Assembly (NCBI GenBank): GCA_937132085.1
Contig: CAKZNV010000163.1
Location: 7,441-71,440 of the forward strand
Origin: an uncultured Rubritalea sp.
GTDB lineage: Bacteria; Verrucomicrobiota; Verrucomicrobiia; Verrucomicrobiales; Akkermansiaceae
Direction: 5' to 3'
DNA length: 64,000 nucleotides
Position 1 is the first letter of the stretch; each line of letters starts with the position of its first letter. Positions 9,511 through 48,436 of the stretch are shown here, piece after piece. The notes under the pieces are model-generated. The model was not told the DNA's origin, searched no databases, and saw only the letters and a program-made list of their open reading frames with translations. Position numbers and translations under genes: made by a program.

Positions 9511-10887
9511 ATGCTTCTAACTGATACAAAAATTCGCAGTGCCAAACCACAGCAAAAACAATACAGGCTTTCCGACGGCGAGTGCCTACACCTAGTCATC
9601 AGACCTAATGGCTCTAGGCTATGGCACTATCGATACGAGTTTTTAGGTAAAGCTAAAACACTTTCTATAGGGAAGTATCCAGAAATTTCACTAGCAGAAG
9701 CTCGTGAGCAAAAACGAGAAGCTAAAAAACTATTAAGAAAAAATATAGATCCATCTGCTCGTAAGCAGCAAGAGCGGTCAATTGCTACGTATAAAGCTAA
9801 CGATACCTTTGAAAAACTGACCCGTGAATGGCATGAGCATAAATCTATACGTTGGAGCCCTAAATATGCAGCAAACACGATAAGAAGGGCTGAAATCCAT
9901 ATTTTTCCTCATATTGGGAAAAGAGCCATCGCCGACGTTACTCCACTTGAAGTTCTAGCGATTATTCAAAAACTCGAATCCGAAGGTAAGACCGACATGA
10001 GCCGTCGTGTCCTAGAAATTATTAATGCTGTATTTAGACGTGCTATCATAACGGGTAGAATTGATCGCAACCCTGCTACGGGTCTAGTTGAAGAGGCAAT
10101 CCCTCATCACGTTGAGCATCACCCAGCTATCACAGAGCAGGAAATTCCCGATTTCCTCAAAGCATTGGATAATCTCAAATGCTATCAGCAATACACGAAG
10201 TATGCTTTCTGGCTTCTTCTCTTAACTGGTGTGAGGCAATGTGAGTTACGTTACTCTAAAAAAAGCGATATTGATTTTAAAGCCAAAGAATGGAGATTAC
10301 GACCAGAAGTTACTAAAATGAAGCGAGTTCACATTGTGGCCTTATCAACTCAGGCTATTTTTGTTCTGCGGAAGTTATTTGAGCTTACTGAATTCAGTGA
10401 ATGGCTCGTTCCATCTCAAAGAACCAAGATTCATCCTGTAATGAGCGAAAACACAATCAACCAAATTATCAAGCGCATGGGTTATAAAGGGAGAATCGTA
10501 GGGCATGGCTTCCGCTCGCTGTTTTCAACTACTCTTAATGATCATGGCTTCGATAGCAAAGTAATTGATCGTCAGCTAGCCCATGTAGGACGTGATAAGA
10601 TAGAGGCTGCGTATAACCGAGCTGAATACAGCAAAAAGCGTCGAGAAATTATGCAATGGTGGGGTGATTTCCTAGATTCACACCGCCCCAGAAATAAGCG
10701 ATTCTGTCCTAAAGAATATGAAATCAAAGGCCACTTCACTTTATCTCAGACTCTGATTCTAATGAATGCAACCCTTTCATACAGCGACGAATCTCTATTA
10801 CATCCCAACCCACAGAACGCTTACCAAGCTTCACAGGCTTTGGGTAAGCCCCTGATTCAATACCACGATACCATGTGCTTTTACTAA
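9511..10887 (+). CDS. P4-type tyrosine integrase (Int2) with N-terminal arm-binding domain
   Basis: MLLTDTKIRSAKP...LSDGECL N-terminus; TGVRQCEL, HGFRS, QLAH and AAYN catalytic motifs. Confidence 0.92.
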   Translation: MLLTDTKIRSAKPQQKQYRLSDGECLHLVIRPNGSRLWHYRYEFLGKAKTLSIGKYPEISLAEAREQKREAKKLLRKNIDPSARKQQERSIATYKANDTFEKLTREWHEHKSIRWSPKYAANTIRRAEIHIFPHIGKRAIADVTPLEVLAIIQKLESEGKTDMSRRVLEIINAVFRRAIITGRIDRNPATGLVEEAIPHHVEHHPAITEQEIPDFLKALDNLKCYQQYTKYAFWLLLLTGVRQCELRYSKKSDIDFKAKEWRLRPEVTKMKRVHIVALSTQAIFVLRKLFELTEFSEWLVPSQRTKIHPVMSENTINQIIKRMGYKGRIVGHGFRSLFSTTLNDHGFDSKVIDRQLAHVGRDKIEAAYNRAEYSKKRREIMQWWGDFLDSHRPRNKRFCPKEYEIKGHFTLSQTLILMNATLSYSDESLLHPNPQNAYQASQALGKPLIQYHDTMCFY

Positions 10888-12178: not shown

Positions 12179-13510
12179 CTAATAATTTCGGGCTCTACGC
12201 TTTGCTTCGCGGATGAGTAAGCCGTTCGGACGCCCTTGCAAAGCGGCGCAAATTGTCATTCCCAACCTAAATCTACGCAACACCTCCAGCCTCGCTAGCT
12301 TCTGCCTATGCCGCTTTTGAATCATTTTCGGTCTTTCTTGCATCTTCACTGGTGCTCTATCGTGCGGAGTAGAGCGTTGACCTGCATTGCCTTCCTCAGT
12401 ATCTCTTGCCTCCTGCTTATGCTTTTCACTCTCGTTATTCTCAACCACCAACTCCTCTTTAAGACCATGCTCTATGTCTGCACCAGTCTTGATCAAAGCC
12501 ATCTGCAACTCTTTCTTTTCACTGCGGGTTAATAAAGAATTCTGAAATCTCTTCACCTTCTCTCTGCTAGAACTCAACATTTTGTTAGAACGTGCATCTA
12601 CAACAAAGCTCTTCACCTCCTTCCAGCTAGGTTTTCTATGAAAGGCTTCTTCAAACTCCCTTCTAAATCGAATCTTCGCCTCCCTAGACCGCTCCTTAAT
12701 AAATTGTTCAACACGAGCCTTATTCGGCTCTTGACCAAACAACTCCTGATATCTCCTCACAAACCGCTCTCGCTGAATACTTCGCTGTGAAAACTTTCTC
12801 TCTATAGTGTGAGAAACCTCATTAAGCCGAAAGCCATGCTCTCCCCAACTCACAGTATAGCCAATCGCCTCTGCTCTCTTTGCCAAATTCTGATAAAAAT
12901 ATTCTCGGATAGAAATCTTACTTTCCTCCATCATAGGACGTGGCTGTAAGGCTAGCCATTTTTGCCGATCTTCACAATATGTCACATTCCCAAACACCAA
13001 ATGTGTATGCAATAATGGATCTAACATTCTGCTCGTGTCATGCTGATAAACAGCGCACACCGCATTACCTGTAATCCGATATGACTCAGTATTCACATTC
13101 GTCCCATGCCGAACTCGAACCGCCGCAAACTCTTCCAGCTTCTTAAACGTTTCAATACTAGCTTTATGATACGCCTCAACCAAGCGTTCATCCCCTCCCG
13201 TTAGAGCCATTATACTATAAGACTTAGGAGCGGAAACGACTACATCGTGATAAGCCACTATCCGACTTCTCGGTGTCAGCTTCTCCCCTGTAAATGGATG
13301 CTGATTATTTCGTATTGCCTGAAAATGCTCTTCCTGGACTTCCACACCTAACAAACCCAACTTCTCCGCACCTTGACCATGCCAATAGCCTACCACCTTC
13401 TCGCTCTCGGAGTAATAATCGTTCGCAGAAAGGTGAACTCGTAAATAGTCCTTCCCATCCCTAATCTGGCTAATCGTAATCATCGTTCTAATAGTGATAC
13501 GGAAAACCAA
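12179..13510 (-). CDS. MOBF (TrwC-type) relaxase without helicase domain; likely start at 13483
   Basis: NDYY, YWHGQGAEKLGL, SAPKSYS and HDTSR..DP.LHTH (3-His) motifs; no Walker A motif. Confidence 0.88.
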   Translation of the reverse strand: MVFRITIRTMITISQIRDGKDYLRVHLSANDYYSESEKVVGYWHGQGAEKLGLLGVEVQEEHFQAIRNNQHPFTGEKLTPRSRIVAYHDVVVSAPKSYSIMALTGGDERLVEAYHKASIETFKKLEEFAAVRVRHGTNVNTESYRITGNAVCAVYQHDTSRMLDPLLHTHLVFGNVTYCEDRQKWLALQPRPMMEESKISIREYFYQNLAKRAEAIGYTVSWGEHGFRLNEVSHTIERKFSQRSIQRERFVRRYQELFGQEPNKARVEQFIKERSREAKIRFRREFEEAFHRKPSWKEVKSFVVDARSNKMLSSSREKVKRFQNSLLTRSEKKELQMALIKTGADIEHGLKEELVVENNESEKHKQEARDTEEGNAGQRSTPHDRAPVKMQERPKMIQKRHRQKLARLEVLRRFRLGMTICAALQGRPNGLLIREAKRRARNY

Positions 13511-18580: not shown

Positions 18581-19228
18581 TTACCTCCTCCCTCGCTTAG
18601 CGTCTAAAACCTCTAAGCCTATACGTATTCGATTCACACACCATTCTACGTCTTCTATACTCCAGTTTAGAATCTCATTTAAATAACGCCCTATCCTATC
18701 TACATCCACTTTGCCTCTAGAATGACTAGATGCAGAACATATGAATTCATCCAATCTACGGACATCATAGAAATGATGACTCAAGGGGTGATGAGCCAAA
18801 TACATTTCAAATTTAGAGCGTGTCTTAGCCCCACTAATCGCTGACTTTAGAGTTAATTCAGCACTTGTCGACTTAACTAGCAGCCCCCATTTTTTCTCTT
18901 TAGCAAAAGCTTTAAGGCTCTTTTCAAAACTATTGAGAAAGCTATTATACTCCTCTACAGACAATTCTGATTTCGATTGTGGAACTATATTAGTCAACTG
19001 TAATGATGCTCCATCAGATGTAGCGAAATGTATAGAGGGGTATGGTTCAGCATAAACTGCATGGGCTACAATAGCATCAGAATCAATAGCTCTTCGATAC
19101 ATTAATGTTTGCTTCCTCAAATACTCATATTCATGAGATCTCTCGACAAACAAACTCACATACTCAACTAAATCTCTAGAGTCTTTTTCTGTAGCTCTAA
19201 TTGTCAATTCTTGAAACACCATCATCAT
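18581..19228 (-). CDS. Hypothetical protein coupled to the Mrr-like nuclease
   Basis: 215-aa ORF; ATGA overlap with the upstream gene. Confidence 0.6.
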   Translation of the reverse strand: MMMVFQELTIRATEKDSRDLVEYVSLFVERSHEYEYLRKQTLMYRRAIDSDAIVAHAVYAEPYPSIHFATSDGASLQLTNIVPQSKSELSVEEYNSFLNSFEKSLKAFAKEKKWGLLVKSTSAELTLKSAISGAKTRSKFEMYLAHHPLSHHFYDVRRLDEFICSASSHSRGKVDVDRIGRYLNEILNWSIEDVEWCVNRIRIGLEVLDAKRGRR

Positions 19229-20229
19229 TTTACTATAGAACGCTTTATTAAGCTTAGCAGTTCCCTATAATCTATTAATTGAAGTTCCCATGTATGCTTC
19301 TCTGCAAAAGCAACAGCATCTTTAGTGAACCCCGATGTCGTTGCTATTATTGCCTTAGATGCTCCTTCACTTATTTTCACACCATACAATTCCCTAACCT
19401 GAGAAACAGACACTTTCCTCTCTTTTTTATACCTTTTACATTCTATAATATGCTTAAGCATTATATTACCGGGGTTACCAATTGCTAAAATATCACGTCC
19501 TCCATCCCTCGTCCTCTGGGTTAAACAAACTTCATACCCCATCTTAGAAAAAACAGTTCCGACAAGTTCCTCAAAAAATCTAGGATCTACCGAATACAAT
19601 GATTGGGGGTTATCAACGAATCCTTCTGCTATTTTACTACTAACTTCGATAAAGATTTCATCATCTAGGTAATTTGAATCTTCAGGCGTCCAAATATTAG
19701 AATATTTCTCATGTATTAAAAACTCTATTGCTTCCCGAACTTCATCAAAAATGCTATCAGGATCTCGTCTCGAATACCTCTCTTCAACTCCTAAATCATA
19801 GATTTTTCCCTCCAAAATATCTAACTGTTCAAGAGCCTTATACCACTCTCCTCTAGTCGACAGCTCAATTGCTAAATCTCTATCTTGAGCCATTGATTCA
19901 AAATGCCCATCACAATATATTCTTTGATTCGCTTCAAATTCATACTCACCTGCATTTTTATCCACCAAATATGACTGGTGTTCTAACTCTGATATAACAT
20001 CTCCATTAGGCATCGTTATAAACCCTCGAGGATTCATGGGGATACCTGTTACTGTATCAGGTATTATCAATCGTCTATCTGGGATTCCTATAATAGCTCC
20101 CAACTTATTTAGTTGGGTTTCTATTTTTGATCGCTTCCGGTCACATATATGTAACAATTGCTTTTCACTTGGCATTGAATTGATTTTCTCAATCAGAAAC
20201 ATACTGTCAAGAATACTATTTATTCTCAA
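19225..20229 (-). CDS. Restriction endonuclease with C-terminal Mrr catalytic domain
   Basis: FEELV..VF..MGY.V..T..TRDGGRDI...IECKRY...V.V..VRELYG...ATTSGFT..A. Confidence 0.82.
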   Translation of the reverse strand: MRINSILDSMFLIEKINSMPSEKQLLHICDRKRSKIETQLNKLGAIIGIPDRRLIIPDTVTGIPMNPRGFITMPNGDVISELEHQSYLVDKNAGEYEFEANQRIYCDGHFESMAQDRDLAIELSTRGEWYKALEQLDILEGKIYDLGVEERYSRRDPDSIFDEVREAIEFLIHEKYSNIWTPEDSNYLDDEIFIEVSSKIAEGFVDNPQSLYSVDPRFFEELVGTVFSKMGYEVCLTQRTRDGGRDILAIGNPGNIMLKHIIECKRYKKERKVSVSQVRELYGVKISEGASKAIIATTSGFTKDAVAFAEKHTWELQLIDYRELLSLIKRSIVK

Positions 20230-20260: not shown

Positions 20261-21109
20261 ATGATGAATTGTAGAAACAATATGGGGAAATGGATGTCTG
20301 GATTAGACGAAGCGGAATATCAAAAGCTCGCGGCAGCTGTTAAGCAAGCCGAGCAAATACAAGAGAACGGAGGTTCAGCTCCTAATGGAGTGATCTCTAA
20401 TTTTATCTTTAATGCGAAACATCGTATGAGTGTGCTAGATGAACAGATTGACATTTCTCAGGAACAGTCGAAAAAAGATAAAGCATCACTTACCGAAGCA
20501 GCTATTGCTCAGCTAGTAAGTCAAGAAACTCGCTTGAACTCTACAGAGAAAGAAGCGTATGCGAGTTTCCTAGGGAAGGATTACTTTACACGTGAAGACA
20601 TCAACGACCTTAACACATTTTATGCCGACGGTGGGGCGTGGGATAAATTATCTAAGAAAGGTAAGGACGAAATTGGCATTCGACTTGAAGAAGGCTTGCA
20701 ACGTGGTGAAATAGAATTTTCGGATGTATCTAAATCGGTTCAGAAAAAGCATAATGACTGGGTTTATGAGCAGTTCACACAGCGTGAAATTCCAGCTGAT
20801 AATTTAGCTAATGTATCTGGCGAAGCTCGTGAAAATTTCATCCGTGAGTATGAATCTGGAAACACTGAAGCAGCACGCAAGGTTTTGGATCAGCAGAGTT
20901 CTTCTGTTTCTGTTCATGCTGAACAGAAACAATCGGCTACATCACTAAGCGATGTAGCCGCCGTGGCGGAAAACAACGAAAAAACTGACTCGAATAAATC
21001 CGATACCGCCAATATAAAAGAGGATAATGTCATGAATGAACTCGCCAATTTAGGACAAAGTCCAACTTCTCTAGAAATGACCTCGCCCCCAGACCTTGGG
21101 AGAAGCTAG
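20261..21109 (+). CDS. Hypothetical protein with a DGG.WDKLS domain
   Basis: 282-aa ORF; aa ~85-146 are homologous to part of the convergent neighbour. Confidence 0.65.
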   Translation: MMNCRNNMGKWMSGLDEAEYQKLAAAVKQAEQIQENGGSAPNGVISNFIFNAKHRMSVLDEQIDISQEQSKKDKASLTEAAIAQLVSQETRLNSTEKEAYASFLGKDYFTREDINDLNTFYADGGAWDKLSKKGKDEIGIRLEEGLQRGEIEFSDVSKSVQKKHNDWVYEQFTQREIPADNLANVSGEARENFIREYESGNTEAARKVLDQQSSSVSVHAEQKQSATSLSDVAAVAENNEKTDSNKSDTANIKEDNVMNELANLGQSPTSLEMTSPPDLGRS

Positions 21110-22146
21110 TTATTTTGCTTAATATTTCTCTTCATCCTAGCCTCACGAAACCCTGCCAACATCTCTGAATGCGCAATTATTCGCAAGCTATCAACCATAC
21201 TCATCATTCGAATTTTCACTGACTTTGCTCCACTTGAGCTAAGCTTCTTATCCACGAGATCAAATCTCCTTTGGAACGCATCCTTGATATGATGGGAATA
21301 ACGAACGGCATCCTTGTCTTTCCAACCGAACTTTTTGTAATCAACTTTGTCCTCATTCAACTTTAGTTTCTTGATAAGCATAGACTCTAACAATGAAGAA
21401 TTAATCTTCTTTTCAGGGTCTTTGAAATACCTCAATTGATAATCTAGGAACAACTGAGAAATAGCCAAGTTACCATTCATCAGCTTCTTAAAAGATTCAC
21501 GTTCTTTTGCCGTCTTCATGCCTAGCTCCAACCTGATACCAATCTGATCTTTACCTGTTGGACTAAGCTTGTCCCATCCTCCACCATCAATATAAAACTG
21601 ATCAATCTCTTTCTTATCTGACTTCTTAAAGAACTCCTTTTGCAAGAGTTTCAGATACATAGCTTTCTCTCGTTTATCAAGCTTTGACTCCTCTGCTACC
21701 AATTCAGCATGAGTCTTACGCCATGAACCACGAATGGCATGTCGCATATCAACTCCACACTCTCTGCACAAAGCTTGTAACTGCAAAGGCTTCTCTAGCT
21801 CTTTCCAATTCTTAATAAGAAGTTCAAGCTTTTCATCGGTGAACCAGCCTGGTCTAGCACTCGATTTAGTATCTCCAGTAACTTTCGCATACAGTGCATC
21901 AATCCGCTTATGCTCAGCCATTACATGCCGAATATAAGGCTCAGGTGAGCCGTGATGCTTCAAGCTGCCAGCAAGCTGTAGCATTGTCGCTGACAGGTCT
22001 GACTGAGCAGGTTTAAAACCTTTCTGTGGATCATAGAACGTTTGTTGAGCTGTAGCCGATTGATAGGTCAATATCAGTGTTAGCAATGGAATTAAAGCAC
22101 TCCGTAAGTAACTCTTCCTTAATAGATTTATAGTAGTCTGAAACAT
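21106..22146 (-). CDS. Secreted hypothetical protein with a DGG.WDKLS domain
   Basis: Basic N-terminus, hydrophobic stretch and ATA cleavage-like site; the start codon lies inside the left inverted repeat. Confidence 0.7.
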   Translation of the reverse strand: MFQTTINLLRKSYLRSALIPLLTLILTYQSATAQQTFYDPQKGFKPAQSDLSATMLQLAGSLKHHGSPEPYIRHVMAEHKRIDALYAKVTGDTKSSARPGWFTDEKLELLIKNWKELEKPLQLQALCRECGVDMRHAIRGSWRKTHAELVAEESKLDKREKAMYLKLLQKEFFKKSDKKEIDQFYIDGGGWDKLSPTGKDQIGIRLELGMKTAKERESFKKLMNGNLAISQLFLDYQLRYFKDPEKKINSSLLESMLIKKLKLNEDKVDYKKFGWKDKDAVRYSHHIKDAFQRRFDLVDKKLSSSGAKSVKIRMMSMVDSLRIIAHSEMLAGFREARMKRNIKQNN

Positions 22147-22164
22147 AATAGGTAAATTGTTTCA
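22139..22164 (+). repeat. Left inverted recombination site (IRL)
   Basis: TGAAACA-TAATAGGTAAAT-TGTTTCA; 24/26 identical to the reverse complement of 22775-22800. Confidence 0.85.
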
Positions 22165-22173
22165 AGGAATCCC

Positions 22174-22725
22174 ATGGGAAATCAAATATATGATAAGGTC
22201 GGACAACGTAAGTATCTTAACAAAGCAGAGAGCAAACTATTCTTAGATGAGGCTTCGAAACTAGAAGGTCATGAGAAGGCTCTTTGCCTCTTTCTCTATT
22301 ATACTGGTTGCCGTATCTCAGAAGCTCTAGAGATGACACCTCAGAGAGTCGAGTTCGAGAACGACTTGGCTGTTATACGATGCCTCAAGAAGCGTGCTAG
22401 CATTGAATATCGCGCTGTATTAATACCTCAAAGGCTAGTTTCTCAACTCTCTATTATGACAGCCACTCATGATACAAGGTTCTGGAATTTTTCGAGAACT
22501 ACAGCTTGGAGAATAGTTAAGAAGGTGATGTCTCAGGTTGGTGTAACAGGCTCCAAGGCTACAGCCCGATCACTGCGCCATACTTTTGCTGTTCGTGCTA
22601 TTCTCAATGGCGCTCCACTCAATAAGATTCAATCATGGCTGGGGCATTCTGACTTGTCAGTAACATCGATCTATTTAAATGTGACGGGTGAGGAAGACCG
22701 TCAGTTCATTAAAAAAACATGGTAA
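22174..22725 (+). CDS. Small catalytic-domain tyrosine recombinase, putative invertase
   Basis: YTGCRISEAL, SLRHTFA, LGHSD and IY motifs; 183 aa; flanked by inverted sites. Confidence 0.85.
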   Translation: MGNQIYDKVGQRKYLNKAESKLFLDEASKLEGHEKALCLFLYYTGCRISEALEMTPQRVEFENDLAVIRCLKKRASIEYRAVLIPQRLVSQLSIMTATHDTRFWNFSRTTAWRIVKKVMSQVGVTGSKATARSLRHTFAVRAILNGAPLNKIQSWLGHSDLSVTSIYLNVTGEEDRQFIKKTW

Positions 22726-22741
22726 ATACAGAGCTTTAGGC

Positions 22742-22769
22742 TTGAATTAATAGCGCGTTTTCATAGCTT
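22742..22769 (+). promoter_or_regulatory. Candidate outward-facing promoter inside the invertible segment
   Basis: TTGAAT-N16-TAGCTT ending 5 bp before IRR; imperfect sigma70 match. Confidence 0.4.
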
Positions 22770-22774
22770 GGATA

Positions 22775-22800
22775 TGCAACAATTTACCTATTGTGTTTCA
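22775..22800 (-). repeat. Right inverted recombination site (IRR)
   Basis: Reverse complement reads TGAAACA-CAATAGGTAAAT-TGTTGCA. Confidence 0.85.
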
Positions 22801-24261: not shown

Positions 24262-25683
24262 TTAGTTTGCAGTGTTGTAGAAAATGTGTCCACCAGCTTT
24301 ACCATCTTTCCACTTCAAGTGTTGTAAATCATTACCAGCTTCAATTTCACGCGTATTTTTATCATTATGCACTTCATATCCCTTTTTGTAGACCTGCCCC
24401 CTATCTTTAGAATATTGCTTATAGCGATTCATGTTTCCTCTAGCCTCGACGAGAAGCTTCTTTGCATCCGTAGCATTCACGGTTCTAAAATTCAATTTGC
24501 CTTTACCTAGTCCAGAGAGACTTTTGACAGCAGCTTTCCACTCTTTTGTTTCTGGCTTAATCGTAGAGAGACCAGATGCTACACCTTCTCTCTTGATTCT
24601 TCCTTTCTTATTATAGCTCGCTAGCTTCTTTGATTCAACTTCTATCTTACGAGCTAACTTATTTGGTATTCCTAATGCATGGTTAACTTTAATCTTCCCC
24701 CTTTGATCCTTAGCTAGTTTTTTTATCAGTTTACGACTAGACGTGAGCTTAGAGTTAACTCCATTCAAAGCTTTAGCCCACTGTGTTCTCCGTTTGTGAG
24801 TTTTCTTACTGCCTCCAACTTGAGGTCTATTGGCGTGGTTAGGAGAATGCCCTACAGACTTTTTAATCTTCTTTCTATCTGCCCTTCTAGCAGTTTTAAG
24901 TTTCCTCCCCTTTTTACTTGTCTTGCCACTAATTGACCTTCTTTCTATTCGTGGTTTGTTTTTTACATTTGTTCTAAAAGTTCCTGATTTTCTAGCTGAT
25001 ATTCCAGACTTAGCACTATGATATTTCGCTACTGTGTTTCTGTAGCCTTTCCTTATACGAACTGAATTTCTGCCTATTTTGCCATACTTTACACCCCTTC
25101 TAACATTTGCTTGTTTAGACTGAAAAGAGCTTCTCACTCTTCCAGCGGATGCTCTTAACCTGCTTTTTGCTGTAGTAACCTTCCTCTTAACCGCAGAACG
25201 TGTATTTCTAGCAGTTGTTCTAACGTTATTAAAGCGTCTCCGTGCAGTAGAACGAGCAGTCCTATATTTATGCTTGGCTGATTGTCTAACATTCCGACCT
25301 TGCCTCCCAATGTTTGCACTTATTTTACGCACCCTTTTCCGAGCACCTTTAACACTACGCTTAGCCCTCCAATTAGCGATTCTTGCTTGTCGTCTAATTC
25401 GAGGTTGAGATCGTGGAACAACTTTACGAGCAGAGTTAGGTTTTACTTTCGGTTTAGGAGCAGGACGAGGCTTTGGCTTTGGGCGTGCTTTGGGTTGCGG
25501 TTTAGGGCGAGGCTTCGGACGTGGCTTAGGTTTAGGACGAGGTTTTGGGGCTGTTTTAGCGAAATAAAATGCAACAGTTCCCCCTCGCCCTTTAAACTGA
25601 ACAGCGTCTATAGGGACAACTAGAAGAAAGCTGAATAGAAAAAACAGATTTTTACGTAACAGTAGGTGGAAACTAAAATTCAT
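24262..25683 (-). CDS. Secreted Pro/Lys/Arg-rich protein with C-terminal toxin-like tip
   Basis: Signal peptide, (PK/PR)n tract and long R/K-rich region; C-terminal YEVH...NDLQHLKWKD..GGHIFY. Confidence 0.6.
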   Translation of the reverse strand: MNFSFHLLLRKNLFFLFSFLLVVPIDAVQFKGRGGTVAFYFAKTAPKPRPKPKPRPKPRPKPQPKARPKPKPRPAPKPKVKPNSARKVVPRSQPRIRRQARIANWRAKRSVKGARKRVRKISANIGRQGRNVRQSAKHKYRTARSTARRRFNNVRTTARNTRSAVKRKVTTAKSRLRASAGRVRSSFQSKQANVRRGVKYGKIGRNSVRIRKGYRNTVAKYHSAKSGISARKSGTFRTNVKNKPRIERRSISGKTSKKGRKLKTARRADRKKIKKSVGHSPNHANRPQVGGSKKTHKRRTQWAKALNGVNSKLTSSRKLIKKLAKDQRGKIKVNHALGIPNKLARKIEVESKKLASYNKKGRIKREGVASGLSTIKPETKEWKAAVKSLSGLGKGKLNFRTVNATDAKKLLVEARGNMNRYKQYSKDRGQVYKKGYEVHNDKNTREIEAGNDLQHLKWKDGKAGGHIFYNTAN

Positions 25684-33055: not shown

Positions 33056-34513
33056 ATGAGATTTATCATCGCCATCACTACCCTCAGTATTGGTTCATGG
33101 TTCAGTCTTTATGTCCATGGCTCGTATTACTTAAGCCTACTTGCCTGCTCATTATTACTGGCGATATGCTGCTTATTCTACCGGAAGAGGTTGATCATTT
33201 TAAGGTGCGGATCACTCACTTGGACACAAGAGGAGCTATGCAGACACATCTTAATCTCTGGCGATACAGGAAGCGGTAAGACATTAAGTGGTTTCCATCC
33301 TATACTAGTTCAACTAACAAAAAATTTGCCCAATTGGGGCGGGCTAGTGCTGGGTGTGAAAGGTGATGAGCATGAATTCATCGAAGAACTCACAGAAGCT
33401 CATGGTAGGTCTCACGATGTCATTCATTTGCAAATCAGACCAGACGGTGAATCGACTAAATGGAAGCCACAACATCGATACAATTTTCTGAGTGACCGAT
33501 CAATCCCATGGATGACTCATGCTAAAGCCGTTGTTGATGTTGCCGCCAGCATGACCGAAGGAAAACAACATGCATTCTTTCGACCTATCGCTCAGATAGC
33601 TTTAGCCAATGCGTTCACCTTGCTTGATGAGCTAGATGAACCTGTGACTCTGACAAGAGCCTATTCCCTGCTCACTTCGTTGGATACGACTCAAGCGACA
33701 TTGAAACGCTTCAAGCGGATAGTGACAACCGCCAAACAACAGGAGCTAGCTAATTTCTTCGATTCCACTTTCATCCAGGCCAAAGCCCATGAACAACAAG
33801 AGGCAATCAAAGGCACTCTGACCACCTACATGTCATTCTTTCTAGATCCTGATGTAGCTAATGTATTTTCTAGTGACGAACCCAATACCTTCTCATTTTG
33901 TCAAATCGATCAAGGAGCAATCATCACGCTAACAATGCCTCAGAGACTCATATCTGAAAGACGCTATGTTCAGACTTACTTGAAAATTCTGTTCTATCTT
34001 CATGCTCTAAGACGTTTTGACAAACCAAGCAAAGAACGAAAGAATGAAAATCTCATCCTCCTAGTAGCTGATGAATTCCAAGATATTGTTACAGCCAGTG
34101 AAGACGGAATAAGCGACCATAAAATAATCGATCGTATCCGCTCAGCCAATGCCGCCATCATCGCTGGAATGCAATCAGAGATCTCTGCAGACCCAACTAT
34201 CGGGCAAATCAAACGCAAAGTTCTCACACTCAACATGAGAACTAGACTCATCTTTAAAGCCGCAGAACACGAAGGAGCTACACTCAGCGCAGAGTTCATC
34301 GGTAAAAAAGAAATCTGGAAAACCACCAAAACCTCCAGCGGCTATGACCGCACCAGCTACACAAAACGTAAAGAGGAAGAATACAAAATCAAACCAACAA
34401 AACTAATGAGCCTCGGTGACCACGTAGCGATCATCGTCCATCCTTCAAAGAAATGGATCAAAAAGAAAATAGCTCCGTTGAATGGCAAGGGTAAGGTTTA
34501 TGATTGGTATTAA
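33056..34513 (+). CDS. Type IV coupling protein (TraD/VirD4-like)
   Basis: Two N-terminal TMs, RHILISGDTGSGKT Walker A, LVADEFQ Walker B, R..N..I...MQS. Confidence 0.85.
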   Translation: MRFIIAITTLSIGSWFSLYVHGSYYLSLLACSLLLAICCLFYRKRLIILRCGSLTWTQEELCRHILISGDTGSGKTLSGFHPILVQLTKNLPNWGGLVLGVKGDEHEFIEELTEAHGRSHDVIHLQIRPDGESTKWKPQHRYNFLSDRSIPWMTHAKAVVDVAASMTEGKQHAFFRPIAQIALANAFTLLDELDEPVTLTRAYSLLTSLDTTQATLKRFKRIVTTAKQQELANFFDSTFIQAKAHEQQEAIKGTLTTYMSFFLDPDVANVFSSDEPNTFSFCQIDQGAIITLTMPQRLISERRYVQTYLKILFYLHALRRFDKPSKERKNENLILLVADEFQDIVTASEDGISDHKIIDRIRSANAAIIAGMQSEISADPTIGQIKRKVLTLNMRTRLIFKAAEHEGATLSAEFIGKKEIWKTTKTSSGYDRTSYTKRKEEEYKIKPTKLMSLGDHVAIIVHPSKKWIKKKIAPLNGKGKVYDWY

Positions 34514-35185: not shown

Positions 35186-35521
35186 TCACTCCATCACCGA
35201 AATCTGATCAATCCTAGCATCTTTCTCAGGCAGAAATATACCTGACGGCAGTTCTCGGAGATAGATCACTCTATGGTCTGTAATTGCCTTATGAATCACA
35301 TCTAGGTTTGCACCAACGACAATCACCTTGCTTTGCGTGAACTCGATGCGTAAGGCATGAGACAAGCCTTTGACTCCGTAGAGATGATTATATCCAGCAG
35401 AGTAGCGTGATTTATCACGCTTGATGAAGGTGAGCATGTTTGAACGGTCCCTGAACTTCACAAACTCATAGCACTCAGTCTTTGACCGACCGTCAAAGCC
35501 ATTAAAAACCTCCTCACTCAT
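35186..35521 (-). CDS. Small relaxase-linked protein (paralog of 11840-12166)
   Basis: ATGA overlap with the relaxase 2 stop; G.NLD motif. Confidence 0.6.
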   Translation of the reverse strand: MSEEVFNGFDGRSKTECYEFVKFRDRSNMLTFIKRDKSRYSAGYNHLYGVKGLSHALRIEFTQSKVIVVGANLDVIHKAITDHRVIYLRELPSGIFLPEKDARIDQISVME

Positions 35522-38217
35522 GCTACCCCTCTTTGCAATGACGTTGCTGGCTGAGGTTGCGAACGCACACTTACTTCTGTTACCCGATTCGCAAGCTCTT
35601 GCTGAGTTTCGTCTAACCTCTTCTGCTCTAACAATTCTTGAGCTAACATTCCTTGTCTACTCCTACTCACCCCCTCAATAAAATCTGCCTTATTCTCTAC
35701 CCAAATCGAAATTTCCTCTCTAGCCCTAGATGCACTGACATAGAACTGTTCCATACTTTCTGCTCCTTGACTCTGTGCCCCCTGACAGATGATTACTTTC
35801 TGCGTTGTCTTACCTTGACTTGCATGACTAGTAGAAACATACCCATATGCAATGGCTGTTGTTCCCTTCGCTATTTTACTGCCATTTTGAAGCTCTATTT
35901 CACCCGTATCTGTAATTGACTTCACCTGATGCACCGAACCGTTATAAATCCTCTTCCCTTCGATACTTTTGACGTTTTTGGTAAAGCGAATCTTATCATT
36001 CACAACTAGTTTCAACGGTATTTGCTCAAACACTTCAAAATGCGTTGAAAAGCTTAAATCTAATCTTTTCAGTGCCTCTGAATGCTCCGAACTGAGTATA
36101 ATCTGCCCGTCTTGCACAGCTTCTATTTTATACGATTCCCCTCTCTTAGAAACTCCGGCCACCCCTTTATGAAAACAAATCACATTGCCCACTTCCAGAA
36201 AATGCGCCATCTGCTTTTGTGCATCGGTCAGATTTTTATTGCGATAACTTATCACTTCTTTCTCTTCTGAACTTAAATAACCTATCGATTTGAGCTTCTC
36301 TCTAATGGCAGAAGTAACAAGCCGCCCTTCTGCGTGAGAAGGTGACACGACCAAAGTATTTTTGCCAACTCCATCAACATAATCTTGAGCGACAAGCTTC
36401 AATTTTTCAGCTAAATCATCATATTCTTTGATAGCTCCCATTTCATCAAATATCTCAACTGCGTCTATCACATTTCCAACACTCAAACACTCAACAGCCT
36501 CCTTATATTGAGCTAGTTTCTGTCGATAGATAGTGCGTGTCTCTTTCACTTCAACCAAGCCACTATCTGTCACCAAGCGCAAACTCCCCCTACCCACACT
36601 TTTATGTTGAAAAACATCACCACTAAGCACTATACGATTTCCATATTTTTCACTTATTTCAAACAGCTTACTAAGCTCTTTTGCCGAGAGCATGCCTGCT
36701 TCATCAACCCACAACACGGCATGACTCGCTTCTTCCTGTAAAGCTGTATTGAGTAAAAATTGCTGAATCGTCTCGCTGTTTTCGAAACCTTCTTGCTTTA
36801 GCACCTGATGGCTCGCCTGTGATGTCGGAGCAAATGTATACACGCGCTCGCCAAATTTCATCATCGAATCTATTGCCGCTTTCATCATCGTAGTCTTTCC
36901 TGTTCCAGCCTTTCCAGCCACTACAAACACACGATCTTTAGAACGCATCAAAGCCTCAACGACCGACTTCTGTTCATCATCTAAGTTAGAATCTTGAAGG
37001 CTAAACTCAGAATGTATCTGATATTGCGTTCCTTTAGTCCGAGCTAAGAATTTTAGTATTTTATTCTCTTCTTCCAACACTAATTTAGTAGTCACATATT
37101 CAGTATTATTCTTGCTACTAATAATCAATTCATCACGTCCTGCTATTTCATCCTCTACCTCTTCTACCGTGCAACTACCAAGTGAATTTTGCAAAACCTC
37201 TGCGATAAGCCTACGATACTGCATCACACTATCTCGCTCGAACATAGAATCGATGGTCTGATCTACCACTTGCTTTAAATCAACATGAATGCTTTCATTT
37301 GCGTCCCAATCATAATCATCGCCCACTCTGTTAGCACGCTCCAGCCACTGATTCCGCATCTCACTCTTGCTTGTATTCGTGATTTTAGGATTACGAGTGC
37401 GTGAAGCTAAGCCATCCATCGCTTTTTTATCCCCAGCAATGCCTAATTCCTCTGCCAGATGCTCTATTTCCTCAGATCGTTTTGAAAACTCATCAATCAA
37501 AGCCTGTGATACTCCCCTCACCTCAAAGCCAAACTTCTTATTGATAATTTCATAGCCAAGCTCTTTCAATCCCATCGCCAATCGACTATGAAAAGCCGCT
37601 TGAAAATACGGAGCTTCTTTTACAACATGATACAGATCTACTGCTTGAAACCTAGCATCATGTAACGTTGTATTAAAAGTATAGGCATGACAATGAAGCG
37701 CAGGATCGCATTCCATCCGTTTTGAATTCTCATTAAACACAGGTCTGGAAACCAAATGAGTAAACTCAGCCCACACCAAATTACCTGTCTTGGCTTCCGT
37801 AGCAACACCACCCTTACGCACACGCACATAAGCACTTTCCTCCACACTCAACATCGTATCTCTAACAGCTTTCTGAAACACAGACAGCACTCTCTCATCA
37901 GAAAAAACGCTATAGAGAATTGAGACTGACTTAGGAGCAGCCCAGGTCAGATCGCATCCACAGCGCCGATCAAGATCTTCTCTAGGGTTCAACTTTCCAA
38001 GCGTATCAGGTCTACGATTATCACACAAAAGCGAGAAATCATCCTTCTCAACATCGCCACTGAGCCCCAAAACACCAGCCGCTTTCCCCGCCCAAACCCC
38101 ACAACCAACCTCCTGCCCATAATAATCCCCCTGAGCCAGCCCAGAATTATAATACGACTTCGCCGCCCCTACTGTTTTACTGTGATGAATTCTCAGCATC
38201 CAACATGTATATACCAC
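35518..38217 (-). CDS. MOBF relaxase-helicase (TrwC/TraI-like); likely start at 38199
   Basis: SYY...DYY, AAPKSVS, H..SRP...DPALHCH, Walker A GKAGTGKTT, VDEAGM and GYVSTSHASQGKT. Confidence 0.92.
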   Translation of the reverse strand: MVYTCWMLRIHHSKTVGAAKSYYNSGLAQGDYYGQEVGCGVWAGKAAGVLGLSGDVEKDDFSLLCDNRRPDTLGKLNPREDLDRRCGCDLTWAAPKSVSILYSVFSDERVLSVFQKAVRDTMLSVEESAYVRVRKGGVATEAKTGNLVWAEFTHLVSRPVFNENSKRMECDPALHCHAYTFNTTLHDARFQAVDLYHVVKEAPYFQAAFHSRLAMGLKELGYEIINKKFGFEVRGVSQALIDEFSKRSEEIEHLAEELGIAGDKKAMDGLASRTRNPKITNTSKSEMRNQWLERANRVGDDYDWDANESIHVDLKQVVDQTIDSMFERDSVMQYRRLIAEVLQNSLGSCTVEEVEDEIAGRDELIISSKNNTEYVTTKLVLEEENKILKFLARTKGTQYQIHSEFSLQDSNLDDEQKSVVEALMRSKDRVFVVAGKAGTGKTTMMKAAIDSMMKFGERVYTFAPTSQASHQVLKQEGFENSETIQQFLLNTALQEEASHAVLWVDEAGMLSAKELSKLFEISEKYGNRIVLSGDVFQHKSVGRGSLRLVTDSGLVEVKETRTIYRQKLAQYKEAVECLSVGNVIDAVEIFDEMGAIKEYDDLAEKLKLVAQDYVDGVGKNTLVVSPSHAEGRLVTSAIREKLKSIGYLSSEEKEVISYRNKNLTDAQKQMAHFLEVGNVICFHKGVAGVSKRGESYKIEAVQDGQIILSSEHSEALKRLDLSFSTHFEVFEQIPLKLVVNDKIRFTKNVKSIEGKRIYNGSVHQVKSITDTGEIELQNGSKIAKGTTAIAYGYVSTSHASQGKTTQKVIICQGAQSQGAESMEQFYVSASRAREEISIWVENKADFIEGVSRSRQGMLAQELLEQKRLDETQQELANRVTEVSVRSQPQPATSLQRGVA

Positions 38218-42024: not shown

Positions 42025-42840
42025 TTATATTCTTATCTGACCACACAAATACCTATGAGTCATTCGTTTCATAGGTCTAACACCTAGGTTTAAATTCCAG
42101 TCATTAGATAATAGAATATTCTCAACTTTAGGAGTCTCGGCAAAGGTGAAGCCTGCGTTTTTTAACCGTTTTACTTCTTGCTCCATTAGTTTTCTCGCAA
42201 TTTTCTGCAGATTCTCCCATGTGAGCTTGTTGAATACTTGCACGCTATCAATCCGAGCAAAGAGTTCTGGACGTAGTATCTGTTGAGCCTGATTTTCTAC
42301 GAATCTTCTCAACGCTGCACCTGATTGCTGTCGTGCTTTGACGATGGCTTTTGAGGCGATGTTGGAGGTTAGGACGATATAATATGCAGTGAGATCGAGA
42401 ATTGTTCCATCTGTTAGAGTCAATCTGCCATTGTCTAATATTTGTAGGAGCAGGTCTAAAATTGGTGGGTGAGCTTTTTCTATTTCATCGAAGAGGATAG
42501 TCCCCTGCCCGTTTGTTTTTTCTAGCAACTGCTGGAATACTCCTTGCCTCTCTGATGTGCCAAGGAATTGATAAATGGAGTCTGGATGCTGAAACTCGCT
42601 CATATCCAAACGAATGAGGTTATCATCACCAAACAAATAGCGAGTGAAGCATACTGCTAGCTCTGTTTTACCTACTCCCGTTGCTCCGAGGTAAAGAAAA
42701 CTACCTTTTGGGCGGGTCTTCTCTGCCATTCCCATTTCACCGATGCGTAAGATTTCTGCGGTCTCTTTGACGGCCTCTTCCTGACCGATGATATGCTCTG
42801 ACAAATGAGTTTCTAGTTGATCTAATTCTTGTGTTTTCAT
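42025..42840 (-). CDS. Stand-alone ClpB/ClpC D2-type AAA+ ATPase
   Basis: GATGVGKTELA, RLDMSEF, FDEIEKAHP, LLQILDNGRLT, LTSN and RPEL.ARID motifs; coupled to the virB10-like gene. Confidence 0.85.
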   Translation of the reverse strand: MKTQELDQLETHLSEHIIGQEEAVKETAEILRIGEMGMAEKTRPKGSFLYLGATGVGKTELAVCFTRYLFGDDNLIRLDMSEFQHPDSIYQFLGTSERQGVFQQLLEKTNGQGTILFDEIEKAHPPILDLLLQILDNGRLTLTDGTILDLTAYYIVLTSNIASKAIVKARQQSGAALRRFVENQAQQILRPELFARIDSVQVFNKLTWENLQKIARKLMEQEVKRLKNAGFTFAETPKVENILLSNDWNLNLGVRPMKRMTHRYLCGQIRI

Positions 42841-43919
42841 TATTTTTCTAGTTTTTTGCGCAAAACATTCATCAGCTCTTCACGTTGTTGAAGAGCGTTG
42901 TTCAGGTCATTTGGTGCGTAAGTGGGTGCGTTAGTAATTTCATTTGTCACATAAATATAAAACTCCGTTCCTGCTAAGGCTCTAACAAACGGCTTATCCT
43001 TGTTAGCTTCTTTTTCCAGATTCCCAGCATAGTCATCAACCACTGTTGCTGCTCCCTCTAACGCTCCATTGCGTGCAGTTGTTAGAACCTCTTCTCCCAA
43101 TATAGTCCGACCTCTTTTCTGAGCGAATCTGCTCATTGCTGATAGACCTTTTGCTAGAATTTTCTTAGAATCTCTCTTCACCCCCGAGCGAATCATTTCA
43201 CCTTTGATACCTAGCGAGCCATCATCCATTCCATAGCGTTTAGTGCGCAGGTTATAATCTCGGTTTAAGCCTGTCCCTGTCATATTCAATGATTTTCCAG
43301 AAGGCAGAACGACTCTCCAGAGAGTTTTCGTAGTCACACGATTTCCTCTGTGGTCTTTGTCTATGCTGCCATGAATCTCACTGCCATAGGGAATCAACAC
43401 CTTACCATTGCTTCTAACAGTTTTCATCACCTTGGCTATAATTGGCAAATCTTGAGTTCCTGATGCAACTGTGGTAACCAACCTACATCGTATCATCGTT
43501 CCCATAGGGATAGTTTGAGTAGGCTCATGCTTCACTATCTTTGTCTTTATTGGCTTTGGCTGAACGGGCTGATAGAAATGCACTAATGCAGGCTGAGGTT
43601 CGAATGCTTCGACCTCTTGAAGATCTGGAACTTCTGGCAATGTTACAGCTTGCTTAGGCTCTACAGCAACTATTGGCTTTGTTGGTCGATATGGGCTATA
43701 ACTCTCACGTTTTTGAACATGAACTCCTTTACCCATATCCGTTGGCTTCTCAGCAGAACTTCCAATGAACGGTATTTTCGGAAGCTTAGGAAGCTCCACA
43801 GTGCCCTTACCGCTACGCTTGCGACAACCATTAATGAAATAGAATATCGTGAGGCAAAGAATCACCAGCAGCACGGTCTTACCTATGCCTGATTTGAAGA
43901 AATATAGTTTATGAATCAT
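42840..43919 (-). CDS. VirB10/TrbI-like T4SS protein
   Basis: N-terminal TM, Pro-rich linker, IPMGTMI.C.L...IP.GS.I.G...DG..GI.G...GT.FYIY domain. Confidence 0.75.
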   Translation of the reverse strand: MIHKLYFFKSGIGKTVLLVILCLTIFYFINGCRKRSGKGTVELPKLPKIPFIGSSAEKPTDMGKGVHVQKRESYSPYRPTKPIVAVEPKQAVTLPEVPDLQEVEAFEPQPALVHFYQPVQPKPIKTKIVKHEPTQTIPMGTMIRCRLVTTVASGTQDLPIIAKVMKTVRSNGKVLIPYGSEIHGSIDKDHRGNRVTTKTLWRVVLPSGKSLNMTGTGLNRDYNLRTKRYGMDDGSLGIKGEMIRSGVKRDSKKILAKGLSAMSRFAQKRGRTILGEEVLTTARNGALEGAATVVDDYAGNLEKEANKDKPFVRALAGTEFYIYVTNEITNAPTYAPNDLNNALQQREELMNVLRKKLEK

Positions 43920-48076: not shown

Positions 48077-48436
48077 ATGAATGAATATCAAAAATACCAT
48101 CCATGCAGTGCCAGCCAAGACAGCAAGGCGGTTGTGTGGAAGCTCCAAGGAAAAGAAGTGCTGTGGTTTACGGCATCATGTGCGGTGGCAATCTTATTAT
48201 TCAGAGTGATATATGATGCTCTTCACTTCGGTTTTATAAGTAGCCTGACATCCGCCGTGATGTGTCCTCTCCTAATCCTCACCTATTTACTACGTTACGT
48301 GGTGGGCAAGCCAGCATCCTACGCGAAAGACTGGCTAGAATGGAAAAGGCTACAGATGCGCGCATGGCTTGCAGAACACGGTATCACTAAAAATGCTCAA
48401 GCATTAATCACTCAACCCAAGCAACATGATGAATAA
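48077..48436 (+). CDS. VirB3-like membrane protein
   Basis: Two TM segments; overlaps the virB4 start. Confidence 0.55.
   Translation: MNEYQKYHPCSASQDSKAVVWKLQGKEVLWFTASCAVAILLFRVIYDALHFGFISSLTSAVMCPLLILTYLLRYVVGKPASYAKDWLEWKRLQMRAWLAEHGITKNAQALITQPKQHDE

Follow-up and report, generated by a model that had tools for sequence, protein, structure and literature searches.

A pair of convergent genes, here termed A and B, was analyzed in a stretch of 64,000 nucleotides from an uncultured Rubritalea sp. (contig CAKZNV010000163.1), referred to throughout as the window. Gene A encodes a predicted cytoplasmic protein and gene B a predicted exported protein, and each was found to contain one copy of the same helical module. 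Neither protein, nor the module, fits any family of the collections tried (Pfam, NCBIfam, PHROGs and PADLOC). The two genes end on overlapping stop codons, and gene B begins inside an inverted repeat that flanks the gene for a small tyrosine recombinase. The account developed here has three parts: a genuine shared module, a conserved A/B pair, and a proposed role for that pair as the outputs of a recombinase switch in an integrative and conjugative element (ICE). Taken as a whole, this account is offered as plausible and somewhat short of probable.

A helical module shared by A and B

A preliminary description of this region reported that A and B share an ungapped segment of about 60 residues, that only one of the proteins has a signal peptide, and that the stop codons overlap, and all of these observations were borne out. 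A and B are the two long open reading frames of this region. The two 62-residue strings that it gave are exact translations of positions 20513-20698 (plus strand) and 21517-21702 (minus strand). They are identical at 31 of 62 positions without gaps, for a BLOSUM62 score of 173; shuffled controls scored -54 +/- 17.5 (z 12.9), and none of 20000 reached 173. Comparison of the whole proteins by BLASTP gave 32/65 identities with no gaps (E 3e-20) and no other significant match. Alignment of the family A and family B profiles by hhalign covered 67 columns with a probability of 99.5 and E 8.5e-23, and nothing aligned outside the module. In an alignment of 16 module sequences, invariant E, L, F, F, R and G columns were present. 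The shared segment is a genuine helical module of about 67-75 residues, in which a first, short helix precedes three or four others. An EF-hand-like reading of its "DGG.WD" loop, made by eye, was dropped, the residues being missing from many family members.

Next to no credence is given to the explanation that this similarity reflects chance, low-complexity coiled-coil likeness, or a recent event linking the neighboring genes, such as inverted duplication of DNA or gene conversion. Both proteins are all-alpha and contain many charged residues, as a coiled-coil likeness would have it, but the shuffle control, the profile alignment and the invariant columns argue against such an origin. At the DNA level the two copies are 53% identical and agree at 24 of 62 third codon positions, which points to an old duplication visible at the protein level and speaks against an inverted repeat of recent date. 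These saturated third positions, together with the module tree described below, in which the A and B modules form separate groups, led to the rejection of recent duplication or gene conversion as the source of the similarity.

Members of family A are about 270-300 residues long and lack an export signal. The module is always present, at residues ~75-145, where it makes up the first half of a conserved globular domain; a disordered polar tail comes after this domain. In A itself, an N-terminal helical hairpin precedes the module, and a conserved C-terminal helical extension lies between the module and the tail. Homologues of A start with MSxLDEAEY at the position of M12 (20294), and the real A is therefore probably 271 residues long and not the 282 residues of the open reading frame (ORF). 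The AlphaFold2 model built from the family alignment was all-alpha, with a predicted local distance difference test (pLDDT) score of 83.7 and a predicted template modeling (pTM) score of 0.65. Its module helices span residues 83-93, 100-109, 115-118 and 121-137, after the end of a helix at 31-77. Profiles of the N-terminal region and of the C-terminal extension matched 110 and 113, respectively, of 135 non-B module proteins (loci included), the misses being mostly fragments or members of one divergent subgroup; neither profile matched any of 57 B proteins.

The disordered tails of many A proteins, including that encoded at window positions 20900-21106, contain a recurring D-L-S-x-I/L-x-L-x-G-x-x-L motif and often finish with a basic residue plus G or S. 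Judged by its sequence, this motif may be of the short linear kind, serving in interaction or export.

Family B has a core of about 260 residues with predicted Sec-type export, and in this family the module is optional and missing from many members. A crude hydropathy test detected a hydrophobic N-terminal stretch in 42 of 43 full-length B proteins and in 0 of 112 A proteins; in the window, this stretch and an A-x-A motif are found in B, and neither is found in A. The model of B, again built from the family alignment, was all-alpha (pLDDT 90.2, pTM 0.82), with a helix at 4-29 of low pLDDT and module helices at 146-152, 158-168, 175-184, 190-193 and 196-209. Within the module, the models of A and B agree in their pattern: a short helix leads into two helices of medium length, and after a turn comes a longer one.

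The module behaves as an insertion in family B. In the B alignment, a block of about 78 residues is cleanly missing from six homologues of 258-288 residues, and in one further family member (P0015) the module lies about 50 residues further along than in the window. Three sites were recognized: after core position ~142 (site 1, that of the window), after ~186-195 (site 2) and at the C terminus (site 3), occupied in about 24, 9 and 3 B proteins, respectively. For the B core, a tree was computed from 53 rows with the module cut out, as a quick IQ-TREE run supported by the Shimodaira-Hasegawa-like approximate likelihood ratio test (SH-aLRT) only. The site-1 proteins formed one group (SH-aLRT 100), and site-2, site-3 and module-less forms interleaved, with well-supported branches forcing at least two to three changes. 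A tree of the module itself (171 rows, only 76 columns) was poorly resolved inside, and one branch parted all 36 B modules from all 135 A modules (SH-aLRT 91). The window A module grouped with A modules and the window B module with site-1 B modules. This split indicates that the B copies share an origin separate from that of present-day A copies and were not renewed from the neighboring A gene. Within family B, the trees indicate that the module has been moved, lost or passed among genes more than once.

When 1.84 billion (1.84e9) representative proteins were searched with a profile built from 16 module segments, 207 clusters (50% identity) matched at E<=1e-3, 193 of them at E<=1e-10. Among 165 proteins taken, 126 carried the module without the B core and 39 matched the B core; no third architecture besides A and B was present among the matches listed (best 150 of 207). 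Pfam had no family for A or B at E<=0.1 and gave only three single-member chance matches over 19 B-family members. Over the 16 module segments (E<=10), two matched DUF6433, at E>=0.0087, and nothing was significant. NCBIfam and PADLOC had no match for the module, A or B, and PHROGs gave one marginal match, between A and phrog_4729 (a family of unknown function; E 7e-4), and otherwise none. The claim that this is a new domain family, at work in two compartments, is thus supported: none of the four libraries matches it, and of the two architectures in which it occurs, only one has an export signal.

Structural searches likewise returned no relative of either protein. The family A and B profiles had no match among PDB sequences at E<=0.1, Foldseek matched neither model to the PDB at E<=1e-3, and B was without a match at E<=1e-3 in the BFVD collection of viral structures. 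A wide VIA-align search of 48161 PDB representatives matched A by its N-terminal hairpin only, generically and at Z<=8.8, and gave a best Z of 5.6 for B, values below the level that the tool notes count as meaningful for helical proteins. These fold searches were made with the whole A and B models, so their negative outcome concerns the two proteins, and the absence of a known fold is not established for the module alone. A feature search of the ESM Atlas found no cluster at >=0.9 for A or B. The nearest named clusters, DUF3849, DUF4316, DUF6047 and DUF5045, are uncharacterized families of conjugative elements that scored 0.75-0.80, below the meaningful 0.9, had no hidden Markov model (HMM) match, and serve as leads only. 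Five homologues checked in their source records were labeled "hypothetical protein" or unnamed, and the titles and abstract openings returned by full-text literature searches contained nothing on families A, B or the module.

Conservation of the convergent pair

A and B were found tail to tail in all nine genome loci, which comprise the window and eight independent Verrucomicrobiota loci. The latter are L001-L005, from metagenome-assembled genomes of Verrucomicrobiaceae, Verrucomicrobiales, Verrucomicrobiae and Chthoniobacterales, and three genomes of the window's order. The A-family alignment led to 21 metagenome loci: in 18 of them, an ORF with the B core or a B-type module directly follows A on the opposite strand, and in the remaining three the available DNA ends no more than 326 nt past A. 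The stop-to-stop distance between A and B ranged from -18 to +8 nt (median -4) in the 26 loci readable at both ends, 14 of which overlap. Eleven further genome loci with two module matches always had them in the order plus strand, then minus strand. The 17 typed loci with a full-length B included 11 with a module-less B, two with the module at site 1 and four with it at site 2, and convergent pairing holds throughout. Since pairing is kept in the 11 loci with a module-less B, the module cannot be what generally ties A and B together.

The module was carried by 4 of 401 genomes in a sample of the phylum, by 21 of 401 in a sample of the order (10 of 67 genera), and by none of seven other species of the window's genus. 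The window's own genome has only the two copies in A and B. All named or sampled hosts of the pair are Verrucomicrobiota. The pair does not have the features of a type II toxin-antitoxin system: A and B converge in all loci examined, and no toxin or antitoxin family was matched in Pfam, NCBIfam or PADLOC.

The strict co-occurrence and adjacency of the two genes could also be explained if A and B were direct binding partners, acting as ligand and decoy or in exclusion, as the preliminary description had suggested, with their modules packing by homotypic helices. The net charges of the modules, with a median of -5 in A and +1 in B, are complementary and would suit such a contact. Against it, the predicted compartments of the two proteins differ, as the hydropathy test above indicates, and the 11 typed loci with a module-less B mean that the module cannot be the general A-B interface. 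We regard direct binding as distinctly improbable.

A repeat-flanked recombinase cassette beside B

The small recombinase gene beside B is divergent from it and encodes a catalytic domain only. NCBIfam gave its product weak, sub-threshold matches of Xer/invertase-like type; that to "tyrosine-type DNA invertase" reached 30 bits (E 2.6e-7), where the cut-off is 222. A recombinase of 183-188 residues adjoins B divergently in 12 loci, namely the window, L001, L002, L012, L014, L015, L017, L020, L027, L029, L036 and L037. In the window it lies inside a repeat-flanked segment of 662 bp, and inverted repeats of 26-29 nt, about 610-620 nt apart, flank it in each of the five loci checked, which are the window, L001:2066-2745, L002:7298-7972, L012:10837-11514 and L014:10755-11431. 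Repeats around a short segment together with a tyrosine recombinase, the arrangement by which invertons are recognized, were thus present in all five. In each of these, the outer repeat arm encodes the start codon and first codons of B, which explains the conserved N-terminal peptides of the family (MKQNPMKLVH..., MF(Q/H)...). The preliminary description had placed B under an invertible switch. Of that claim, the position of the B start codon in a repeat arm flanking a recombinase was upheld; inversion itself was unseen in assembled contigs.

Several further observations concern the cassette. Each repeat arm is close to palindromic (TGAAACA...TGTTTCA) but has an asymmetric core, and in this it resembles a recombinase target with two half-sites. 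In L012, the far arm also opens a 99-residue ORF that shares the first ten residues of B. One low-depth contig from a relative that is about 95% alike matches the window through the end of the right repeat (22801) and continues in unrelated sequence, so the right flank of the cassette differs between relatives. The small recombinase was found beside B in 6/6 loci with a module-bearing B and in 4/11 loci with a module-less B, the loci being related and no statistical test applied.

Larger recombinase genes also recur around the pair. In L003, L004, L005 and L013, Pfam identified an Xer-like integrase of about 325 residues that is encoded immediately upstream of A and in its orientation, and ORFs of about 325 residues with a weak recombinase HMM match occupy the same position in L018, L020, L023, L026, L029, L032 and L035. 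Beyond the small recombinase, an excisionase-like HTH_17 gene is present in L001 (Pfam), with look-alike ORFs recognized by eye in L014, L017, L027 and L029. The HTH_17-like gene is followed by a converging integrase ORF of 365-405 residues in L014 (Pfam) and in L027 and L029 (weak recombinase-profile match). In L027 and L029, the next ORFs begin like glycoside-hydrolase and aldo-keto-reductase genes, judged by eye from their first residues. By this gene order, the cassette appears to lie near the integration end of the element in L014, L027 and L029.

These neighbors would fit a role for A in assisting the adjacent tyrosine recombinases, as an accessory or directionality factor: an Xer-like integrase precedes it in four loci by Pfam and in seven by weak HMM match, and at the end of the element the cassette adjoins both a second integrase and an excisionase-like gene. 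B would then be functionally unrelated to A apart from a captured piece of it. We consider this decidedly unlikely. A has no recognizable DNA-binding domain and its module is acidic, the window A has no integrase upstream but an Mrr nuclease gene on the other strand, and the constant convergent presence of B would be left unexplained.

A proposed switch between two outputs

Our preferred reading, drawn from gene layout and predicted localization, is that A and B may be alternative, mutually interfering outputs of an ICE switch; it is held tentatively, as possible rather than probable. Inversion of the recombinase segment would toggle transcription of B, alternating it with transcription of the excisionase-like gene on the far side. 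Because there is no room for a terminator between the A and B stops, B transcription would run antisense into A, and it would also run into the Xer-like integrase gene that is often upstream of A. The element would consequently have two mutually exclusive states, with A made in the cytoplasm in one and B exported in the other. The shared module would give A and B the same binding specificity on either side of the inner membrane, toward a putative partner that may be element-encoded or envelope-spanning. On B's strand, the only terminator-like hairpin lies about 150 nt past the B stop, in the tail-coding region of A; it is a consensus match only and not evidence of function, and the promoter and terminator scan gave no excess over shuffles.

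A number of findings weigh against this proposal. No small-recombinase match was found beside a full-length B in 5 of 17 typed loci (L003, L004, L005, L013 and L018), with two others (L026 and L028) having too little DNA beyond B to judge; the switch is thus not obligatory for the pair. Where the small recombinase is present, its orientation relative to B is identical in all loci, which leaves the alternative state of the switch hypothetical. No inversion joints were detected in the assembled contigs of four public runs, such contigs being prone to drop rare variants. These four were the public runs matching the stretch; all consisted of assembled contigs, the matching share was low (0.24 of words in the best run), and no RNA run was among them. 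The relative mentioned above, about 95% alike, covers A, B and the recombinase in these contigs in pieces. A scan for sigma-70 consensus sites found seven promoter-like sites, with 7.5 expected by chance, and no weight is placed on a weak -35/-10 pair noticed by eye near 22740-22770.

The pairing of the genes and the supposed identity of their partners are open to further objections. Two of the 11 further genome loci, with wider spacing between their module matches, were examined. A gene for a lipoprotein-like protein of 195 residues (G639, L036:2277-2864) lies between A and B in one locus, and in the other an Xer-like integrase gene that converges on B (G448, L037:2309-3271) separates them, giving the order A-integrase and not integrase-A. 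Adjacency of A and B is therefore a rule and not a law. The difference in module charge could mean that the A and B modules have different partners, and a common binding partner for the two is pure inference.

The proposal can be extended to a bistable lifestyle switch. A flip of 0.66 kb would redirect one promoter from the excisionase-like gene to B, transcription of B would silence the convergent integrase-A unit by collision or antisense effects, and the module would address one partner from the cytoplasmic side in A and from the periplasmic side in B. In that case the three insertion sites would record selection to present the binding surface in the envelope. We judge this extended form to be a long shot.

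Mobile-element context

By its gene content the window is a conjugative element, and the linkage to an ICE that the preliminary description had put forward for checking was supported by the TrwC relaxases, coupling protein, TrbI and integrases of the window (Table 1) and by mobile-element genes in the annotated loci. With two relaxases and two integrases, the window may comprise two mobile elements, either nested or in tandem. Its defense and addiction genes include Mrr, a methylase fragment, Shedu, NACHT, RES-Xre and a HigB/A-like pair. Other A/B loci carry TrwC, ArdC, RPA, insertion sequence (IS) elements, the cyclic oligonucleotide-based antiphage signaling system (CBASS), Hachiman and Fic.

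Table 1. Positions of the A/B pair, the recombinase cassette and the mobile-element genes within the window
Feature	Position	Strand	Description
Gene A	20261..21109	+	282-residue ORF; cytoplasmic all-alpha protein, predicted
Module copy in A	20504..20710	+	residues 82-150 of the 282-residue ORF; by BLASTP, hhalign and exact check
Terminator-like hairpin	20934..20960	-	12-bp stem
Overlapping stops of A and B	21106..21109		CTAG palindrome; A TAG at 21107-21109, B TAG the reverse complement of 21106-21108
Gene B	21106..22146	-	346 residues; exported all-alpha protein, predicted; family core starts 'DPxKGFKPAQ...LQLAGSLEHHGSPEPYIRH'
Module copy in B	21505..21711	-	residues 146-214; insertion into the B core at site 1
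B export signal, predicted	22042..22146	-	residues ~1-35; hydrophobic helix, then ATA|QQ
Inverted repeat, left arm	22139..22164		26 nt; holds the B start codon and first codons
Small tyrosine recombinase	22174..22725	+	183 residues, catalytic domain only; divergent from B; Pfam Phage_integrase, 7e-23
Inverted repeat, right arm	22775..22800		26 nt
Integrase	1608-2885
Integrase	9511-10887
TrwC relaxase	12179-13510	-	443 residues, relaxase domain alone
Type IV coupling protein (T4CP)	33056-34513
TrwC relaxase	35518-38217	-	full-length, with helicase
TrbI	42840-43919
TraG/VirB4-like ATPase	48426-51080

Such neighbors raise the alternative that the A/B pair is cargo, that is, a two-gene defense, anti-defense or addiction system in a hotspot on the integrase side, its link to the recombinase being one of location only. 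Defense-related genes are indeed near the pair in the window (Mrr-type nuclease, methylase fragment) and in other loci, where they comprise CBASS (SMODS, HORMA, patatin) in L003, L004 and L013, Hachiman (HamA and helicase) in L002, Fic in L001 and L013, and ArdC in L012. However, neither A nor B matches PADLOC, and the defense neighbors vary by locus while the arrangement of A, B and the recombinase is constant. Convergent, overlapping genes are, moreover, not the usual layout of toxin-antitoxin or defense operons. On balance, a cargo role is considered rather unlikely.

Three neighboring regions were noted in their own right. At window positions 18581-20229 (minus strand), the gene for an Mrr-type nuclease of 334 residues (PADLOC PDC-S02/type IV restriction endonuclease matches) overlaps by 4 nt that for a 215-residue protein of no known family, and the two may form a two-gene defense unit directly upstream of A. 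In L003 (11898-14633), L004 (12180-14305) and L013 (11185-13111), where an Xer-like integrase precedes A, the far side of that integrase is immediately followed by CBASS-type operons, which encode an SMODS/DncV-like cyclase, HORMA, AAA, and patatin or DUF6602 effectors. A 473-residue ORF at 24262-25683 (minus strand), with a hydrophobic N terminus, long PKP/RPKP repeats, an extremely basic body and no Pfam match, heads an unannotated gene block at 24.2-31.7 kb that ends with VWA and MotA/ExbB-like proteins.

Significance and comparison with known systems

Conjugative elements of Verrucomicrobiota are almost unstudied, and two protein families and one domain, comprising at least 207 clusters, are defined here from them. 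Families A and B merit domain models, which would end their annotation as unrelated hypothetical proteins. Their arrangement is a fixed and unusual layout, apparently at the integration end, and is widespread within one phylum. If the pair is the output of a recombinase switch, it would represent a compact coupling of DNA inversion, convergent transcription and protein localization.

Proteins of conjugative entry or surface exclusion include TraS and TraT of F, Eex of SXT and TrbK of RP4. B resembles these as an element-encoded, predicted envelope protein that has a signal sequence and varies between related elements; the envelope location expected of an exclusion protein is predicted from the hydrophobic N terminus of nearly all full-length B proteins and the A-x-A motif of the window B. 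In contrast to exclusion proteins, B showed no sequence or fold likeness to any entry in the PDB searches, the N terminus of the window B has no lipobox cysteine, and the gene lies by the integrase/excisionase end and not within the mating-pore genes.

In fim-type switches, such as E. coli fimS with FimB/FimE, and in the "invertons" of Bacteroides, small tyrosine recombinases invert promoters. The cassette described here is like these systems in its short segment bounded by inverted repeats, its tyrosine recombinase of about 180-200 residues, and the gene for an exported protein beside one repeat. It differs from them in that no inversion was seen in assembled contigs, the recombinase gene itself fills the putatively invertible segment, the repeat holds the start codon and first codons of B, the putatively regulated gene, and B is half of a convergent pair that overlaps at its 3' ends. 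Set beside these systems, the cassette may be viewed as a phase-switch-linked accessory unit of a conjugative element, built from protein families without models.

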